From Thermoplasmata archaeon (lineage in GTDB: Archaea > Thermoplasmatota > Thermoplasmata > Lutacidiplasmatales > UBA184), in the NCBI GenBank assembly GCA_033854115.1, contig JAWOKS010000008.1, positions 9,828 through 73,827 on the forward strand: DNA of 64,000 bases, given 5' to 3'. Each line of letters begins with the position of its first letter. Positions within the stretch are counted from its first letter, which is position 1. This document shows, one piece after another, positions 10,044 through 45,872 of this stretch. The notes beneath the pieces were generated by a model. That model was not told the DNA's origin, did no database searches, and saw nothing but the letters and a program-made list of their open reading frames with translations. The position numbers and the translations under genes were made by a program.

Positions 10044-10604
10044 ATGGCGACGACGCGACGCTTCGCTCGGCTCGCCCGGTCCGCGGACCGACCGTTCGTC
10101 TACGAGGTCCCGAACGACGGGATGTGCCTCTCGGCTTTCCTCGTGGTCCGGCCCCCGTCGCGACCCCACGAGGTCCTCGTCGGGCGCATGAAAGCGACCG
10201 ACGCCTGGGAGCACGCGGCGGGCGTCCACGCCGACCGTATCCGCTCGACGGGGGACCGATGGGTGCTCCCCGCGTCGCAGCTCGTGTTCTTCGAGAGGCC
10301 GGACGAGGCGGCCCGTCGCATCGCCGCGGAGCAGCTCCACCTCGCGGACCTTCCGCTCGGCTCGCCCCGCGTCTTCTCCGAGGCGTACCCTCGGCGCGAC
10401 GGTCCCCAGGACCCGCACTGGGACCTCCACTTCGTCTACACCGTCGACCGACCGTCGGCCTCCCCGCCACCACGGGGGGAGCTCTGGCAGGAGCTCACCT
10501 ATGTTGACGTCCGCTCCACGCCCGCGTCGGCGTTCGGCCGGGGCCACGGCGACGTGCTCGCGCTCGTCGGCCTCGCCCCCTCGGGGACCGCGACGCCCCT
10601 CTAG
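10044..10604 (+). CDS. NUDIX-fold protein with a degenerate Nudix box
   Basis: 186-aa ORF. The segment FFERPDEAARRIAAEQLHL resembles the Nudix box (E-x7-REUxEExGU) but is degenerate. Confidence 0.45.
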   Translation: MATTRRFARLARSADRPFVYEVPNDGMCLSAFLVVRPPSRPHEVLVGRMKATDAWEHAAGVHADRIRSTGDRWVLPASQLVFFERPDEAARRIAAEQLHLADLPLGSPRVFSEAYPRRDGPQDPHWDLHFVYTVDRPSASPPPRGELWQELTYVDVRSTPASAFGRGHGDVLALVGLAPSGTATPL

Positions 10605-11128
10605 GACCGGTCGGGAACGAACCAGACGTCCGTGACCCGGAAGCTCGGTCGCTCGGCGAACCGGGCGACGACGGGCATCCCCACGTAGATCTCCGACTCG
10701 GTGCAGTCCTTCAGGCGGACGAGGAGAAGGCTCCCGGCCCCGTCGAACTCGACCAGTGCGAGGTTGTACGGGGTCTCGGCGAGGAACGCCTCGCTGCCGA
10801 ACCGGCAGGTCGTCCAGGAATGGACCCGGCCCTTCGCCGGGAGCTCGGTCCACTCGGTCGGGCGGCCGCAGACCATGCAGTGCGACCGCGGGGTCGCGTA
10901 GCGGAAGCCGCAGCGCGCCCCGGTGCACTTCGAGCCGAGGAGCTTCCCTTCCGCGAGCCCGAGGAAGAACGGGGAATCCTCGGCGTAGCTGTGGATGTAC
11001 TCGATCACGTACGGGTCGCGGATGACGAGGCTCTCCTCCCCCTCCCGGTCGCGGAAGATCGCGGAGCCCGTGCGCTGGAGCTCCGCCTGCACGTCGCGGA
11101 ACTTGTCGAAGGTGCTCGGGCGCGCCAT
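10601..11128 (-). CDS. DUF35 family Zn-ribbon/OB-fold protein (thiolase-associated)
   Basis: The ATG at 11128 inside track ORF 10601..11695 gives MARPSTFDKF.... It has a rubredoxin-like ribbon (CTGARCGFRY...HCMVCGRP) followed by an OB-fold tail. The ATGA overlap with the upstream thiolase-like gene suggests translational coupling. Confidence 0.85.
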   Translation of the reverse strand: MARPSTFDKFRDVQAELQRTGSAIFRDREGEESLVIRDPYVIEYIHSYAEDSPFFLGLAEGKLLGSKCTGARCGFRYATPRSHCMVCGRPTEWTELPAKGRVHSWTTCRFGSEAFLAETPYNLALVEFDGAGSLLLVRLKDCTESEIYVGMPVVARFAERPSFRVTDVWFVPDRS

Positions 11129-12555
11129 CAGCGGAACCCCCGCTCGAGGATCGAGACGGTCACCGACGAGCCGGTCCCCGCGTGGCTGTGGATCGCGCCG
11201 CGCCGCGGCGACGGGACCTGGAGCGCCGCGTCCCCGAAGTGCTTGCGGATCGTCCCCTGGAGCTGCCAGAAGGCGAAGGCGGCCTGCATGAGACCGGTCG
11301 CCCCGACCGGGTGGCCACACGCGATGAGGCCGCCCGAGGGGTTCACCGGGATCTTGCCGGCCGCGGGCACGTCGAGCCCGTAGTCGATCCCCTTGAGGAA
11401 CGGCGCGCCCGAGAGGGTGAAGTCGTACCCCTCGCCGTAGCGGCAGAGCCCGAGGTCCTCGTAGGTCTGGATCTCGCTCGACGCGTAGGCGTCGTGGAGC
11501 TCGACGAAGTCGAGCTCGCGGATCGGGTCGGTGAGGCCGGCCATGCGGTACGCCTCGAGGCCGGCGGAGCGGCCCGCGCGGAAGGAGTGGACGCCCGGGT
11601 ACTCGAGCCCCCGGTAGTCGGCGGCCTTCTCGTGGGGCATCAGCGGGACCTCGCCGAACGGCCGGTCGGCGAGCCGCATCGTATCGGTCCCGCACCCGAC
11701 CCCGGTGACGCGGACCGGCTTGTCGGTGAACTCACGCGCCCGCCGCTCGTCGCAGAGGATCGCGACCGCGGCGCCGTCGGACATCGTGCATATCTGCTCG
11801 CGCGTGAGCGGGTAGGAGATCATCTCGGAGGCGAGGACGTCCTCGACGGTGAGCCGCTTCGGGTACTGGGCGTAGGGGTTGTGGAGCGCGTTGGTGTGGT
11901 TCTTCACCGAGACCCAGCTCATCACCCGCTGACCTTCCGCGATCGCGAGCCGCTGCGCCTCCCGCTCGTCCTTCACGTTCGCGAACTTGCCCCGGCGAAG
12001 GTACTCGTAGATGTGCCGGACGACCATGAGCGCGTAGTAGCCGGTGTAGAACCCCCCAAGGGGGAAGTCGAAGTTCGTGTCGGAGGCGAGCGCGATGAAC
12101 TCGTTGCCCTTCCACGTCGCGACCCGGCTCATCGTCTCGTAACCGGCGGCCAGGCAGACGTCCATCCGCCCGCTCGCGACCGCCTCGTACGCGGCCTGGA
12201 AGCACTCGCCCCCGGTCGCCCCGCCCCACTCGATGCGGACCGAGCCTTTCGGGTTGAGGCCGAGGTAGTCCTGGACCATGCTCGCGGCCTTCAACTGGCG
12301 CGAGAAGTGGTCGGAGAAGTAGGAGATCCGCGAGCCGTCGATCCGGTCCTTGGTGAGGTTCGGGATCCCGCGGAGCGCGTCGTCGTACGCCCGCTTGACC
12401 ATCAGGCGGAAGTCCATCGCGGGGTGCGCCTTCGCGAACTTCGTGACGCCGGCCGTCACCACGTAGACGCGGCGTCCCGGCAGGGAGGACGGACGCGAGG
12501 AGGCGCGGGTCCGGCGCACGGGGCGGCGCTTCGGGCGGGGCGAACGTGCGGGCAT
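11128..12555 (-). CDS. Thiolase-fold (SCP-x-type) protein lacking both catalytic cysteines
   Basis: VYVVTAGVTKF... has thiolase architecture and keeps NPSGGLIACGHPVGATG. The nucleophile position reads RIEWGGATGG (the in-window paralog has RVENACASGG), and HDCF is replaced by HDAY. The first ~35 aa are Arg-rich; an alternative GTG start lies at 12519. Confidence 0.8.
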   Translation of the reverse strand: MPARSPRPKRRPVRRTRASSRPSSLPGRRVYVVTAGVTKFAKAHPAMDFRLMVKRAYDDALRGIPNLTKDRIDGSRISYFSDHFSRQLKAASMVQDYLGLNPKGSVRIEWGGATGGECFQAAYEAVASGRMDVCLAAGYETMSRVATWKGNEFIALASDTNFDFPLGGFYTGYYALMVVRHIYEYLRRGKFANVKDEREAQRLAIAEGQRVMSWVSVKNHTNALHNPYAQYPKRLTVEDVLASEMISYPLTREQICTMSDGAAVAILCDERRAREFTDKPVRVTGVGCGTDTMRLADRPFGEVPLMPHEKAADYRGLEYPGVHSFRAGRSAGLEAYRMAGLTDPIRELDFVELHDAYASSEIQTYEDLGLCRYGEGYDFTLSGAPFLKGIDYGLDVPAAGKIPVNPSGGLIACGHPVGATGLMQAAFAFWQLQGTIRKHFGDAALQVPSPRRGAIHSHAGTGSSVTVSILERGFR

Positions 12556-12658
12556 AGGTTCGAACCTCGCGCGGCCAGCCGGGCCCGGTTCTTAACGTGC
12601 GCTCGGGGCGAGCGCGCTCGGGGGCGACGGTTTTCCCTCCGCGGCCCTAGCGCGACCG

Positions 12659-13681
12659 ATGGCGCCCGAGGACCCGAAGCGAGATCTCGTCTCGATCGCC
12701 GACGTCGCCGACGCGCTCGGGGGGCTGCTCGACCGCGCGGCCCGCCTGAAGGCCGAACGGGCCCGACGGACGGTGCGCCCGAGCCTCGCCGGCCGGACGC
12801 TCGCCCTGATCTTCGAGAAGCCCTCGACCCGCACCCGGACCTCGTTCGAGGTGGCGATCCACGACCTCGGGGGGCACGCCCTCTATCTCAACGCGAACGA
12901 CCTCCAGCTCGGCCGCGGCGAGACGATCGGCGATACCGCGCGCGTCCTCTCGCGCTACGTCGACGCCATCACCTACCGCGCGTATCGCCACGAGAACGTC
13001 CTCGAGCTCGCGCGCGGGGCGACCGTGCCGGTGATCAATGCGCTGGACGACCGGGAGCATCCGTGCCAGATCGTCGCGGACCTCCTCACGATGCGGGAGC
13101 GCTGGCCGGACGGCTTCCGCGGGCACCGCCTCGCGTGGATCGGGGACGGCAACAACGTCCTCCACTCGCTCCTGCTCGGCGCGGCCGCCGTCGGCCTCGA
13201 CCTCACGGCCGCGACCCCCGAGGCCTACCGCCCCGAGGCCGACGTGGTCCGGGCGGCCCGCGCCCTCGCCGACCGCTCGGGCGCGTCCCTGACGTTCACG
13301 TCGTCCCCGGCCGAGGCCGCGAAAGGGGCCGACGCCCTCTACACGGACGTCTGGGTCTCGATGGGCGACGAGGCGGAGCGGGAGGCGCGTGAGCGCGCGT
13401 TCCGGAGCTACCAGATCAACGCGGAGCTCCTCGGGCGGGCCGCGCCCGGGGCGTTCGTCCTCCACGATCTCCCGGCCCATCGCGGCCAGGAGATCACCGA
13501 CGAAGTGCTGGATGGTCTCCGTTCCGCGGCGTGGGACCAGGCGGAGAACCGCCTGCATGCCCAGAAGGCGATCCTCGAGCATCTCCTCCTCGGGGAGGAG
13601 CCGCGCCCGGCGCGGGTCCACGCGGCGCCCCCGAGGACGGCGGGGCGGACGCGCCGCCCGGCGCACGGCCGGGATTCGTAG
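12659..13681 (+). CDS. argF: Ornithine carbamoyltransferase
   Basis: Motifs FEKPSTRTRTSFE, DDREHPCQIVADL, DVWVSMG and HDLPAHRGQE. There is a ~30-aa Arg/Pro-rich C-terminal tail before the first stop. Confidence 0.9.
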   Translation: MAPEDPKRDLVSIADVADALGGLLDRAARLKAERARRTVRPSLAGRTLALIFEKPSTRTRTSFEVAIHDLGGHALYLNANDLQLGRGETIGDTARVLSRYVDAITYRAYRHENVLELARGATVPVINALDDREHPCQIVADLLTMRERWPDGFRGHRLAWIGDGNNVLHSLLLGAAAVGLDLTAATPEAYRPEADVVRAARALADRSGASLTFTSSPAEAAKGADALYTDVWVSMGDEAEREARERAFRSYQINAELLGRAAPGAFVLHDLPAHRGQEITDEVLDGLRSAAWDQAENRLHAQKAILEHLLLGEEPRPARVHAAPPRTAGRTRRPAHGRDS

Positions 13682-43668: not shown

Positions 43669-44709
43669 CTAGCCGGGACGGGGGACGGCCGAGAGCGGCA
43701 CGGCCTTGCGGCCGTACCTCCACCGACCCTCGAGAGGGTAGAGGCGCCGCAGCCGGGTGGCGATCGAGGAGCCGATCCCCATCTCCTCGGGAGACCCCTC
43801 GGCGACCTGGAGGGTCACACGGACCTCGGGGGTCACCTCGGCCAGCACCACGCCGTACGCTCCTTGGGCCTCGACCTGGAGGTCGAACTCCGTCGGTTGA
43901 CCCCCCCGTCCGATCCAGGTTGCCGCCACGACCCGGGCGCCGTCGAGGGGTAGGGGGAGTTCCTCGAGGCCCTCGACCGCACCGCACCCGCGGCACCGGC
44001 CTCGGGCCGGGAACGTGGCGACACCGCACCGGGGGCAGCGTTCGGCGAGGAATCTCCAGCGGCTCGCGAGACCCTCCTCGTAGCGGGCGGGAGGGACGTA
44101 CGCCCCTTCGGAGACCGTCGGGGGCGCGGCCGCGCCCGTGGTCGCCGGTCCGATCGGTCGACCCCGCCGGGGATCGGCCTCCCAGTCCCCGGGCAGGAGG
44201 CTCTCGGTACCGGGCCCCCGGTGGCGACGGACCTCCTCGAGCAGAGGACCCAACCCGCCGTCCTCTCGAGCAGGGGGTGCGGGCGAAGGAAGTGCGGCTG
44301 CGCCCTCCCCTTCGTCGTAGTAGTACGCGATGGCCCCTTCGCTCGGGGGGCCCCGACCGGCCGCCCCGACGCGGACCCCCGACCCCCGGGCGACCACGAC
44401 GACCAGCTGGGCTCCCGGCCCGGCCATGGCCCGGTCGAGCACGGTCGAGAGCGCCGTGGGACCTTCCGGTACCGCCGTCCAGGTCGAAGGACCCCCGAGG
44501 AGGCTTGCGAGCTCCGCCGGCTCCCGCCCCGCGGGATAGCCCACGAGGCGTACGGTCCAGTTCCGGGGGCGAGGGGCCCCCGCGGGGACCGCACGCTCGA
44601 TCGCGGTCGCCGCGAAGGTGAGCTCGTCCTCATCGAAACCGCCGACCCGTCGGTGACCGTCGGTCCAAGAGGGCAGGTAGGCCGCCGCCCGGAGGAGCCC
44701 CCGCGCCAT
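43669..44709 (-). CDS. DUF35 Zn-ribbon/OB-fold protein fused to a degenerate HMG-CoA-synthase-like N-terminal domain
   Basis: The C-terminal ~140 aa (RWRFLAERCPRCGVATFPARGRCRGCG... plus an OB fold) is DUF35. The N-terminus (AAYLPSW...GGFDEDELTFAATAIERAV...EGPTALSTVLDRAMAGPGAQLVVVVA) resembles the first third of HMGCS, but the Cys of the A-C-x-G-G-T motif is not present. The 1-nt overlap with the thiolase stop suggests translational coupling. Confidence 0.7.
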   Translation of the reverse strand: MARGLLRAAAYLPSWTDGHRRVGGFDEDELTFAATAIERAVPAGAPRPRNWTVRLVGYPAGREPAELASLLGGPSTWTAVPEGPTALSTVLDRAMAGPGAQLVVVVARGSGVRVGAAGRGPPSEGAIAYYYDEGEGAAALPSPAPPAREDGGLGPLLEEVRRHRGPGTESLLPGDWEADPRRGRPIGPATTGAAAPPTVSEGAYVPPARYEEGLASRWRFLAERCPRCGVATFPARGRCRGCGAVEGLEELPLPLDGARVVAATWIGRGGQPTEFDLQVEAQGAYGVVLAEVTPEVRVTLQVAEGSPEEMGIGSSIATRLRRLYPLEGRWRYGRKAVPLSAVPRPG

Positions 44710-45872
44710 CAGGCGACCCCGAAGATCGTGACCGCCGCCGTGGCCCCCGCGCCGCCCACGTTGTGCGCCACGGCCCGGCGCGCATGGCCGACCTGGCGCT
44801 TCCCCGCGGTCCCACGCAGCTGCTCGAAGATCTCGTAGACCTGAGAGACCCCCGTCGCACCGATCGGGTGACCCTTCGCCTTCAGTCCGCCGTCCGGGTT
44901 GACGGGGAGCCGGCCGTCCCGGCGCGTGGCCCCCGAAAGGGTCAGCGCCCCGGCCCCGCCCTGCGGGGCGAAGCCGAGGTCCTCAAGGGCGAGCAGCTCG
45001 GCGATCGTGAAGCAGTCGTGGGCCTCGACGAACGACACCGAAGCGCGCTCGCAGCCGGCGGAGCGGAACGCGGCCTCCGCGGCCCGGCGGGTCGCGGGGA
45101 AGCCGAGGAGATCCGGCCGCTCCTGCACCGCAAGGTAGTCGGAGGCGGCGCCGGTCCCCTCGACGAAGACCGGGGTGTCGGTGAGCGTGCGGGCGAGCTC
45201 CGGCGAGGCGAGGACGACCGCGGCCGCCCCGTCGCTCACCGGACAGCAGTCGTAGAGCCCGAGCGGGTCCGCGACCCGCGGGCTCGCGAGCGCCTCCTCC
45301 CGGCGCACCACCTTCTGGAAGTGCGCGTTCGGGTTGAGCGCCCCGTTCTCATGGTTCTTCACCGCGACCTCGGCGAGCGCGTCGCGGGGGACGCCGTAGT
45401 GGTGGAGGTACTGGGAGGCGATCAGACCGTAGACCCCGGCGAAGGTGAGGCCGGCCTGCCGCTCCCACTCCGTGTCGCCCGAGACGCCGAGCCAGTAGCG
45501 GCGCCGGGCGCTCGAGACGTCCGTCATCTTCTCCACGCCCGCGACCATCACGAAGTCGGTGTCGCCCGAGGCTATCGCCCGCACCGCCTCGTGGAGCGCG
45601 AACCCGCCCGAGGCGCAGGCGTTCTCCACGCGGACCGTGGGGAGCCCCGGGACCCCGAGCTCCTCGGCGAGGAGCGCCGAGGAGTTGCCGATCTGCCAGC
45701 CCCCGAAGCCGAGGGTCGCAAGATACCCCCGCCCGATCCGTCTCGGGTCGATCCCTCGGTCGACGCTCGCGAGCGCCTGCCGGGCGGCCTCGCGCACGAG
45801 CTCCCGCGGCCCGGGACGGACGGCCCCGAACCGCGTATGCCCCGCCCCCACGACCGCTGCCCGATACCCCAC
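44709..45872 (-). CDS. Acetyl-CoA C-acetyltransferase (archaeal thiolase)
   Basis: AAVVGAGHTRFG. Nucleophile block RVENACASGGFAL. VEAHDCFTIAELLALEDLG. NPDGGLKAKGHPIGATG. Confidence 0.9.
   Translation of the reverse strand: MGYRAAVVGAGHTRFGAVRPGPRELVREAARQALASVDRGIDPRRIGRGYLATLGFGGWQIGNSSALLAEELGVPGLPTVRVENACASGGFALHEAVRAIASGDTDFVMVAGVEKMTDVSSARRRYWLGVSGDTEWERQAGLTFAGVYGLIASQYLHHYGVPRDALAEVAVKNHENGALNPNAHFQKVVRREEALASPRVADPLGLYDCCPVSDGAAAVVLASPELARTLTDTPVFVEGTGAASDYLAVQERPDLLGFPATRRAAEAAFRSAGCERASVSFVEAHDCFTIAELLALEDLGFAPQGGAGALTLSGATRRDGRLPVNPDGGLKAKGHPIGATGVSQVYEIFEQLRGTAGKRQVGHARRAVAHNVGGAGATAAVTIFGVA

Follow-up and report, generated by a model that had tools for sequence, protein, structure and literature searches.

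Several systems are known in which a thiolase-fold protein works together with a DUF35 protein, built from a Zn ribbon and an oligonucleotide/oligosaccharide-binding (OB) fold. In the acetoacetyl-coenzyme A (CoA) thiolase complex of Methanothermococcus thermolithotrophicus (PDB 6ESQ/6ET9), DUF35 supplies part of a shared CoA site, as accounts of Vögeli et al. 2018 describe it (PMC6392133, PMC12960953), and Saci_1121/Saci_1120 is the ketothiolase/DUF35 pair of a proposed archaeal fatty-acid synthase (bioRxiv 10.1101/2024.07.05.601840). In Ltp2 and Sal the thiolase nucleophile is replaced by Gly, whose backbone contacts the β-hydroxyl; they are retro-aldolases that cleave a C–C bond without an acyl-enzyme, with the Tyr of a YDHF/YDCY motif as base and Tyr344 (Ltp2) or Cys304 (Sal) as catalytic acid, and a MaoC hydratase (ChsH2/Shy) carries their DUF35 at its C-terminal end (PMC12329534). 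DUF35 complexes may also hold dead thiolase-fold subunits, namely PhlA in PhlABC and MucA in MucABC (PMC6392133, PMC12960953). Here we analyse a stretch of 64,000 nucleotides (nt) from a Thermoplasmata archaeon (assembly GCA_033854115.1, contig JAWOKS010000008.1, positions 9,828 to 73,827; the whole stretch is called the window, and its genome of 1.75 Mb is G000). The product of 11128-12555(-), which we termed thlX, is a thiolase-fold protein that lacks both catalytic cysteines and is encoded together with a DUF35 protein, and we provide evidence that it belongs to an old, widespread and uncharacterised 'Gly-type' branch, whose members databases label 'acetyl-CoA acetyltransferase' or 'thiolase domain-containing protein'. 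Handles beginning with G, C, L, P and f are our own, for genomes, contigs, loci, proteins and families.

BLASTP against the Cys-bearing paralog of the window (44709-45872) and phmmer against PDB 6ESQ aligned thlX in an identical register. RIEWGGATGG of thlX lies opposite RVENACASGG of the paralog and RVEAACASGS of 6ESQ, which places Gly112 at the nucleophile position; ELHDAYAS lies opposite HDCF, with Ala356 in place of the acid/base Cys, and GHPVGATG is kept, its His being His415. A MAFFT alignment with 92 representatives put Gly112, Ala356 and His415 in the same columns. A preliminary description of this DNA, made from the sequence alone, had read the same Cys-to-Gly and HDCF-to-HDAY changes beside a retained GHP motif and had taken the protein for something other than an ordinary thiolase. 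Both statements hold, and the possibility it had left, that a Cys might reappear at the nucleophile position once the register was corrected, is answered by three independent alignments that agree on Gly112. Because Gly112 and Ala356 stand in place of both cysteines, the acyl-enzyme intermediate of thiolases would not be possible, and thlX, as judged from its sequence, cannot be a canonical ping-pong thiolase.

A protein database search with thlX returned 7094 homologs, the best 120 of which were 81-92% identical. We then scanned genomes, one per species, and found 556 related stretches, from which 80 loci were retained for the counts given below; nearly all of these come from metagenome-assembled genomes (MAGs) of Thermoplasmata from soil, peat and acid sulfate soils; one of these MAGs bears the name Ca. 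Lutacidiplasmatales. The motif R[IL]EWGGATGG was found in 80/80 of these close orthologous loci, ELHDAY in 79/80 and GGLIACGHPVGATG in 78/80; motifs so nearly invariant indicate that the substitutions are not sequencing noise. A second scan, with a 63%-identical ortholog from the low-GC genome G022 as query, yielded 432 further relatives, among them the complete genome of Oxyplasma meridianum M1, a Cuniculiplasma isolate and MAGs assigned to Thermoplasma, Ferroplasma and Cuniculiplasma. Their signatures are R[VIL]EGGGATGG, ELHDAY and IHSHAGTG, and among the 80 Thermoplasmatales-type loci examined, 79 matched R[VIL]E[GSA]GG[AS]TGG, none had Cys at the nucleophile position and 74 contained ELHDAY. 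A DUF35 gene lies directly downstream in 77/80 loci of the first scan, the remaining 3 running out at a contig edge, and in 79/80 of the second (79/79 complete loci). The pair is therefore intact in 156/156 complete loci from approximately 160 Thermoplasmata species, in an operon of only these two genes, and in all loci of both scans the DUF35 protein stands alone, without MaoC. The coupling of thlX to a DUF35 protein that had been noted in the window is thus borne out as obligate across loci.

A rough Nei–Gojobori (NG86) estimate gave dN/dS of 0.21 for thlX and 0.37 for DUF35. All 20 full-length orthologs found in relatives (E ≤1e-150) are open and have no internal stops, as have 33/33 matches in a sample spread evenly over the class; the sole exception is G015, where the thlX gene is present as two adjacent open pieces. 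Compared with a genome of the same genus, thlX of G000 is 84% identical, next to 91% for both elongation factor EF-1α and ribosomal protein S10, 73% for ornithine transcarbamylase (OTCase), 63% for PssA, 57% for citrate synthase and 55% for Psd. In the class sample, 33 of the 121 genomes, representing 12 of 57 genera, had an ortholog; every listed genome of families f1, f10, f20 and f21 has one, and no thlX match was found among these 121 genomes in other families. Overall, thlX was detected in f1, f3, f5 (as a divergent copy, approximately 40% identical), f10, f20 and f21, and was undetected in the other families sampled. Its conservation is close to that of translation factors, and it is fixed in Thermoplasmatales and in the Lutacidiplasmatales-like soil archaea.

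In a full HMMER scan, 141 of 1.84 billion cluster representatives matched at E <1e-30. A maximum-likelihood tree of 96 sequences placed thlX and 29 other representatives on one side of a branch with support of 99 in the Shimodaira–Hasegawa-like approximate likelihood ratio test (SH-aLRT). The nucleophile position of these 30 is occupied by Gly in 25, Ala in 3, Ser in 1, Asp in 1 and Cys in none, and on the opposite side of the branch the nucleophilic Cys is kept in 48/66. Named Gly-type members come from Asgard archaea (Atabeyarchaeum, Njordarchaeum, Thorarchaeota), Bathyarchaeia, Ca. Methanolliviera and Nitrospinota. One more member, L024:8001-10259(+), is a 752-residue protein in which a thiolase-like domain with RIEAGGATGG and HDAF is joined to a DUF35 OB domain at residues 615-700, encoded on a eukaryotic metagenome contig together with genes for histone H2A, Not3 and a RING protein. 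A DUF35-type gene lies 3′ of the thiolase-like gene in 12/12 readable neighbourhoods of other clade members; one further Gly-type contig stops 156 nt past the gene. The phylogeny and neighbourhood survey that the preliminary description had called for thus give a Cys-less clade with SH-aLRT 99 and a DUF35 gene downstream throughout.

Within this clade, a core subclade of 14 representatives shares the signature GG / HDA[YF] / GHP / HSH-x-GTG / Arg294. Gly occupies the nucleophile position in 13/14 of them, His415 is kept in 13/14 and His354 in 10/14 (Tyr in 1/14). R294 is present in 14/14, and S457 and H458 in 13/14 and 12/14, compared with 10% and 3% of the Cys-type relatives; where canonical relatives read HN(V/I)GG, the core clade reads HSH-x-GTG. 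Further residues conserved in the core and rare in Cys-type relatives are F80, D82, G111-G112, Y170, D297, Y319-P320 and R329, and the signature GG / HDA[YF] / GHP / HSHxGTG is kept in Thermoplasmata, Asgard archaea, Methanolliviera and Nitrospinota. No cysteine is conserved across the 14 representatives: C118, C134, C268, C288 and C413 are variable, and partial conservation is seen at C256 and C371. Given this and the concordant alignments, we rejected both a register error and an alternative nucleophile. The JGI label of thlX orthologs is acetyl-CoA C-acetyltransferase. Full-text literature searches on archaeal thiolase/DUF35, the catalytic cysteine and Ltp2 aldolases returned no title or abstract describing the clade, and a search for 'PRK06365' found nothing.

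Pfam, AlphaFold2 and Foldseek agree that thlX has the five-layer thiolase fold of the SCP2/archaeal type, with Thiolase_N and Thiolase_C_1 detected by Pfam. An AlphaFold2 model built from an alignment of 71 sequences reached a mean predicted local distance difference test (pLDDT) score of 94.5 and a predicted template modelling (pTM) score of 0.92; it is uncertain in the N-terminal tail only, and the insertions are confidently modelled, for example as a long helical pair (170-190 / 197-223). Foldseek ranked 6ET9/6ESQ, the M. thermolithotrophicus complex of thiolase, the synthase of 3-hydroxy-3-methylglutaryl-CoA (HMG-CoA synthase, HMGCS) and DUF35, first among PDB entries (TM 0.93, 28-29% identity), followed by ST0096 (4YZO), SCP2-thiolases, PhlC and BbsB; Ltp2 (6OK1) and Sal (9MYR) came at ranks 38-39 with 20-22% identity. 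Scores from phmmer point the same way (132 bits for 6ESQ vs 25 for 6OK1), and for three other Gly-type subclades the best phmmer matches are likewise archaeal thiolases, not Ltp2. The Gly-type clade has no solved structure, the nearest PDB entry being approximately 29% identical. In classical thiolases, the loop at the place of the thlX HSH motif carries the catalytic base. His458 and Arg294 would lie in the pocket, as suggested by thiolase-fold architecture and by the positions of the strands in the model.

The genome offers a second Cys-less thiolase for comparison. On another contig of G000, C5:6314-8885(-) (L007) is the canonical operon of HMG-CoA synthase, thiolase-like protein and DUF35. 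The HMG-CoA synthase has its catalytic Glu, Cys, His and Asn; the thiolase-like protein reads MRVEGGGASGA / EIHDAYS / GRPFGAVG and is without the nucleophilic Cys, the second Cys and the GHP His. This HMGCS-linked thiolase is degenerate in 28/30 related genomes and intact only in families f4 and f7. Among families, its nucleophile position drifts (G/S/D/E), as do its second motif (HDAY/HDCY/HDNF/HDIV/HDDF/HDSF) and its third (GRP/GQP/GDP/GYP). A classical bacterial-type thiolase (TIGR01930) is present in 27/28 genomes with the degenerate gene and absent from both genomes with the intact one. Matches clear the cut-off in 26 genomes, those in G007 and G016 fall short of it and are partial, and the exception among the 28, G030, is 74% complete. 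In G000 this gene, C61:10169-11329(+), has its CxS Cys, NEAY, GHP and CMGG motifs. The HMGCS-linked gene thus looks like a case of non-orthologous displacement, in which the catalytic role has moved elsewhere and the old subunit is retained as a scaffold. The archaeal HMGCS/thiolase/DUF35 complex had been described beforehand as needing its cysteines, which is not so in this lineage, and the window thiolase at 44709-45872, which had been taken as the normal reference, has all its catalytic residues but is not the HMGCS-linked thiolase of the genome, which lies on another contig and is Cys-less. We also considered thlX as the replacement for the degenerate subunit and rejected this: the classical thiolase occurs in 27/28 of the genomes concerned, which removes the idea that thlX supplies acetoacetyl-CoA, and families f2, f6 and f8 have the degenerate gene and no thlX.

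Two unusual residues were seen at the nucleophile position of archaeal-type thiolases. The HMGCS-linked thiolase of family f3 has Glu there, and Asp (RVEGADASGS) is found in P0190, P0207, P0231 and P0256 and in the HMGCS-linked L117 of G030, some of which keep HDCF and GHP.

We propose that thlX is a non-thiolytic enzyme acting through acyl-CoA enolates, an aldol-type lyase, and on the sequence evidence we put the probability of this at roughly 40%. With its DUF35 partner it would form a complex in which a thiolase-fold dimer is flanked by Zn-ribbon/OB subunits. The parts of a thiolase site that bind acyl-CoA and stabilise the enolate, that is, His354 of the HD motif, His415 of GHP and the NPSGG and GxG loops, are retained, and conserved polar residues were gained in the clade: His458 and Ser457, on what is the base-carrying loop of classical thiolases, Arg294, Asp82 and Tyr170. 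A C–C bond would be made or cleaved beside the CoA thioester through the acyl-CoA enolate, without covalent catalysis, in an aldol or retro-aldol reaction whose substrate would be a short-chain 3-hydroxyacyl-CoA, possibly branched or bearing a carboxylate. The general base/acid would be a histidine, and the Gly112 backbone would give room to the β-oxygen and hydrogen-bond it. That the two proteins form a complex, what the histidines and Arg294 do in catalysis, and which reaction and substrate are involved, we infer from the combined evidence above.

Several considerations speak for an aldol-type enzyme. Both cysteines are lost while the oxyanion-hole histidines are kept, and Ltp2 and Sal show the same Cys-to-Gly exchange. 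The thlX motifs are fixed across phyla while those of the HMGCS-linked paralog drift, so that this paralog serves as an internal control and indicates constraint on the thlX active site. The confidently predicted fold, the DUF35-type gene beside it in every readable neighbourhood and the short-chain acyl-CoA genes around the pair in other lineages count in its favour, as do the dN/dS of approximately 0.2, the 84% identity and the lack of any other conserved Cys in the core clade. Finally, the genome has a classical thiolase and three Cys-bearing paralogs of the archaeal type, and thlX is therefore not needed as a thiolase. Other points weigh on the opposite side. Literature searches turned up no characterised member of the Gly-type clade, and the nearest PDB entry is only approximately 29% identical. 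The Tyr base that defines Ltp2 and Sal is absent from thlX. The Nitrospinota operon has a 3-hydroxyacyl-CoA dehydrogenase, which suggests a 3-keto intermediate that an aldolase would not use. The pair stands alone in the window lineage, where no metabolic neighbours narrow down the substrate. The pocket placement of His458 and Arg294, moreover, is one expected from fold architecture and a model.

In other lineages, among them loci L212-L215, the pair has neighbours that point to short-chain acyl-CoA metabolism. The Nitrospinota operon encodes the Gly-type protein, a DUF35-like protein, 3-hydroxyacyl-CoA dehydrogenase, an acyl-CoA dehydrogenase (ACAD) and an ECH/HIBCH-like protein. In Methanolliviera the Gly-type and DUF35 genes are followed by ACAD, CoA transferase and BKACE, and in Atabeyarchaeum the order is thiolase-like, DUF35, Gly-type, DUF35, with ACAD on the opposite strand. 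The pair is followed by ACAD and an acetate/short-chain CoA ligase in G022, by ACAD, EtfB and EtfA in L212, by ACAD and a CoA ligase in L213, and by ACAD, a methyltransferase and a CoA transferase in L215. These ACADs are closest to enzymes of the butyryl-/acryloyl-CoA type, all of them under the equivalog cut-offs.

In the window lineage, the only recurrent non-syntenic neighbour of the pair is a NUDIX-like gene, a homolog of which lies within approximately 3.6 kb of the pair in 32/80 orthologous loci, on either flank, which suggests a possible functional link to the thlX–DUF35 pair. Approximately 29 of these homologs directly abut it; approximately 20 are downstream and convergent, approximately 9 upstream and divergent, and 3 at 0.9-3.6 kb downstream. 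The Pfam NUDIX match is sub-threshold in four orthologs (E 0.002-0.03), the Nudix box is partly degenerate, and the protein has no match in the PDB.

In Atabeyarchaeum, Methanolliviera and one further contig, additional thiolase-fold genes (L138:3-1160, L019:6282-7481 and L026:7532-9860) adjoin Gly-type/DUF35 pairs. They are without catalytic Cys and His, and together with the pairs they make up cassettes of several genes for thiolase-like proteins without Cys and for DUF35 proteins.

The most serious alternative, which we regard as unlikely, is that thlX is an inert pseudoenzyme whose role is structural or regulatory, as a subunit binding acyl-CoA or docking on another thiolase-fold enzyme in the manner of PhlA and MucA. 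Those dead subunits of DUF35 complexes (PMC6392133, PMC12960953) are a precedent, and both catalytic cysteines of thlX are lost; the same genome keeps a degenerate thiolase beside an intact HMG-CoA synthase, a second thiolase-fold gene stands beside the Gly-type gene in some distant relatives, and very high conservation would also fit a protein with many interfaces. H354, D355, H415, NPSGG and HSH are conserved across phyla, however, unlike the residues of the HMGCS-linked paralog. The neighbouring thiolase-fold genes of the distant clusters are Cys-less as well and leave no obvious catalytic partner, and in approximately 160 Thermoplasmata loci the operon consists of thlX and DUF35, with no catalytic partner co-encoded. 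The purely scaffolding role that the preliminary description had offered as one option is thus less likely, given active-site residues held across phyla and a degenerate paralog that drifts.

It is improbable, though the neighbourhoods give it some weight, that thlX performs a thiolase-type Claisen step without cysteine, by direct attack in a ternary complex with a second CoA site contributed by DUF35. The pair occupies the slot expected for a thiolase in the Nitrospinota operon and in L212, with no Cys-bearing thiolase within the locus, although in distant lineages this view is limited to a few contigs and to one flank. Residues that stabilise the enolate are kept, and the shared CoA site to which DUF35 contributes in 6ESQ, according to accounts of Vögeli et al. 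2018 (PMC6392133, PMC12960953), also speaks for it. Against this, Cys-to-Ala/Ser variants of related enzymes are inactive (PhlC C88A/S; Sal C304A/S), and no gap is left to fill in Thermoplasmata with thlX, which possess Cys thiolases of the classical and archaeal types as well. We know of no thiolase-fold enzyme that does cysteine-independent Claisen chemistry.

Cys-less condensing enzymes commonly keep decarboxylase activity, and thlX could accordingly make no new C–C bond at all, acting as a decarboxylase or enolase-type enzyme on malonyl-, methylmalonyl- or other β-carboxy/β-keto acyl-CoAs, or in α-proton exchange or epimerisation; we consider this quite improbable. The clade-specific invariant Arg294 and the near-invariant Arg329 could hold a carboxylate, although both are known by sequence position. 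The Cys-less SLP of Trypanosoma brucei decarboxylates malonyl-CoA slowly, as cited in PMC12329534 from other work, but its rate is very low and Sal is without such activity (PMC12329534), and the neighbourhoods show no carboxylase or decarboxylase context. A decaying, dispensable paralog, which the lost catalytic residues and an NCBIfam score slightly under the cut-off (624 vs 695 bits) might suggest and which the preliminary description had wanted checked, is refuted by open frames, 156/156 intact pairs, dN/dS of approximately 0.2, 84% identity where OTCase has 73% and a confident fold, and we give it next to no credence.

Pfam recognises OB_ChsH2_C (8.9e-16) and zf-ChsH2 (2e-4) in the DUF35 partner of thlX, which consists of an N-terminal extension of approximately 55 residues, a Zn ribbon (C68, C73, C84, C87) and an OB fold, and which weakly resembles the DUF35 proteins of Shy, 6ESQ, SSO2064 and ChsH2. 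The four Zn-ligand cysteines are ≥99% conserved in 153 DUF35 orthologs. A fifth, Cys108 (WTTCRFG; codon 10805-10807(-)), is 100% conserved in these near orthologs but gives way to Met, Leu or Ile in more distant partners, namely those of G020, G026, Atabeyarchaeum, Methanolliviera, Thorarchaeota and the eukaryotic fusion. A catalytic cysteine supplied in trans by DUF35 was rejected on account of these replacements in distant Gly-type partners.

The coordinates of the locus are collected in the table. The stop codon of thlX (TGA, 11130-11128) and the start codon of the DUF35 gene (ATG, 11128-11126) overlap by 1 nt in a TGATG junction, which corrects the ATGA coupling given before. With the divergent argF upstream and the convergent NUDIX-like gene downstream, thlX and DUF35 form a two-gene unit. 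The best NCBIfam model of thlX is NF004982 (PRK06365), matched with 624 bits over model positions 15-427 of 430, against a curated cut-off of 695; the ordinary archaeal thiolase models NF004720 (266 bits, cut-off 420) and NF053570 (197 bits, cut-off 600) are both below theirs. The NF004982 scores of orthologs span the cut-off (816 bits in G022, 694.7 in G026), and by tree and synteny thlX and these two form one orthologous group. The N-terminus, described earlier as an Arg-rich segment of approximately 35 residues, is indeed basic, with 10 Arg/Lys, and is shorter, at 27 residues; mean pLDDT is approximately 57-61 over residues 1-20 of the AlphaFold2 model. An M/V-P-A-R start and a basic stretch recur in high-GC orthologs, and the tail is absent from low-GC orthologs. 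A GAGGT lies 8 nt 5′ of the ATG at 12555; translation may instead start at GTG codons 32/33.

Table. Features of the thlX–DUF35 locus, in window coordinates
Feature	Position	Strand	Description
thlX	11128..12555	-	475-residue cysteine-less thiolase-fold protein, PRK06365/NF004982-like, Gly-type clade
DUF35 partner gene	10601..11128	-	175 residues; translationally coupled to thlX through TGATG
N-terminal basic tail of thlX (MPARSPRPKRRPVRRTRASSRPSSLPG)	12475..12555	-	27 residues, predicted disordered
Codons Gly111-Gly112 (RIEWGGATGG)	12220..12225	-	Gly112 at the nucleophilic-Cys position, from alignments
Codons His354-Asp-Ala-Tyr357	11485..11496	-	In place of HDCF; acid/base Cys gone, His kept
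Codon His415 (GHP motif)	11311..11313	-	Motif retained, from alignments
Codons His456-Ser457-His458 (HSHAGTG)	11182..11190	-	Clade-specific motif at the end of strand C-beta4
thlX/argF intergenic region	12556..12658	-	TTAAGAA box and GAGGT 5′ of the thlX start, read from the sequence
NUDIX-like gene	10044..10604	+	Convergent with the DUF35 gene, tails overlapping by 4 nt; possible associate
argF	12659-13681	+	Divergent, upstream of thlX

Other thiolase-fold genes of G000 vary as well. Three of its six archaeal-type genes bear the catalytic Cys and three are without it. The latter include a further paralog, C24:12176-13093(-), which has Ser at the nucleophile position (RVEAASATGA) and an HDAF motif. 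In the window, 43669-45872(-) holds thl2 (44709-45872), which shares base 44709 with the start of a 346-residue protein. This protein has a C-terminal Zn ribbon of the ChsH2 type (residues 219-244) and an OB-like region alignable with DUF35 proteins; the N-terminal part of approximately 200 residues has no Pfam or NCBIfam match and by eye resembles a remnant of the N-terminal half of an HMGCS/ketoacyl synthase III (KAS-III) protein. G027 has a pair homologous to thl2 and the 346-residue protein.

These data bear on how archaeal lipid and acyl-CoA metabolism is counted from genomes. Asgard genomes are reported to hold 3.8 thiolase/DUF35 pairs each (bioRxiv 10.1101/2024.07.05.601840), and such pairs are currently read as ketothiolases and counted toward archaeal fatty-acid synthesis or β-oxidation. 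Since ketothiolase chemistry is beyond the Gly-type branch and beyond three of the six archaeal-type genes of this fold in G000, such counts overcount, and labels of the 'acetyl-CoA C-acetyltransferase' kind are misleading. Cultured strains have thlX as well (Oxyplasma meridianum M1 and the Cuniculiplasma isolate), which opens an apparently important acyl-CoA reaction to direct testing. A more far-reaching version of our proposal, which we offer as a doubtful one, is that the Gly-type pair constitutes an unrecognised class of cysteine-independent, histidine-based C–C bond enzymes for CoA thioesters, with His354, His415, His458 and Arg294 as candidate catalytic residues; the class would be ancient, reaching across Thermoplasmata, Asgard archaea, Bathyarchaeia, some bacteria and at least one eukaryote, and would either perform a direct Claisen reaction in the thiolase slot or cleave 3-hydroxy(-3-methyl/-carboxy)acyl-CoAs that lie beyond ordinary β-oxidation, for example as a thiolase-fold substitute for HMG-CoA lyase. 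The pair would also represent a third independent rewiring of the thiolase fold with a DUF35 partner, after Ltp2 and Sal. HMG-CoA lyase (NF004283) scored above the cut-off in 0/31 genomes, so that a test for a distribution complementary to that of thlX is uninformative.

Among described systems, the M. thermolithotrophicus thiolase (6ESQ/6ET9) is the best match of thlX both in sequence (132 bits) and in fold (TM 0.93). The two have in common the SCP2/archaeal-type fold, the His of the HD motif, GHP and dependence on a Zn-ribbon/OB DUF35 protein. thlX differs in having Gly for Cys85 and Ala for the Cys of HDCF, in an operon with no HMG-CoA synthase gene, in insertions at approximately 181-207, 299-322 and 386-398, in its HSH motif and in the N-terminal extension of approximately 55 residues on its partner. 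NF004982 (PRK06365) matches thlX over nearly its full length, but with a score under the cut-off and an extra basic tail on thlX, and the family name conveys no function. Saci_1121/Saci_1120 is likewise a two-gene archaeal operon of a thiolase-fold and a DUF35 protein, for which co-dependence in solubility and assembly would be expected as for the thlX pair, but it is an active ketothiolase, whereas thlX is without the residues for that chemistry. Two further proteins without a nucleophilic Cys lie outside the Gly-type clade: ST0096 of Sulfolobus tokodaii (4YZO), with RVDNTSGSGG and an HDMA motif (Ser), and T. brucei SLP (5AB4-7), with YDCF and no DUF35 partner (PMC12329534). With Ltp2–ChsH2 (6OK1) and Sal–Shy (9MYR), to which the preliminary description had compared it, thlX shares the Gly at the nucleophile position and the partnering with DUF35, and this part of the comparison stands. 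Membership of their family does not: thlX has His354 for the catalytic Tyr, Ala356 for Cys304 of Sal and a stand-alone DUF35 in place of a hydratase-fused one, its match to Ltp2 amounts to 25 bits with Foldseek ranks of 38-39, and 6ESQ is closer. thlX belongs to a separate lineage, in an archaeal host and with no steroid-catabolic context, and by analogy it may nevertheless work like Ltp2 and Sal from outside their family.

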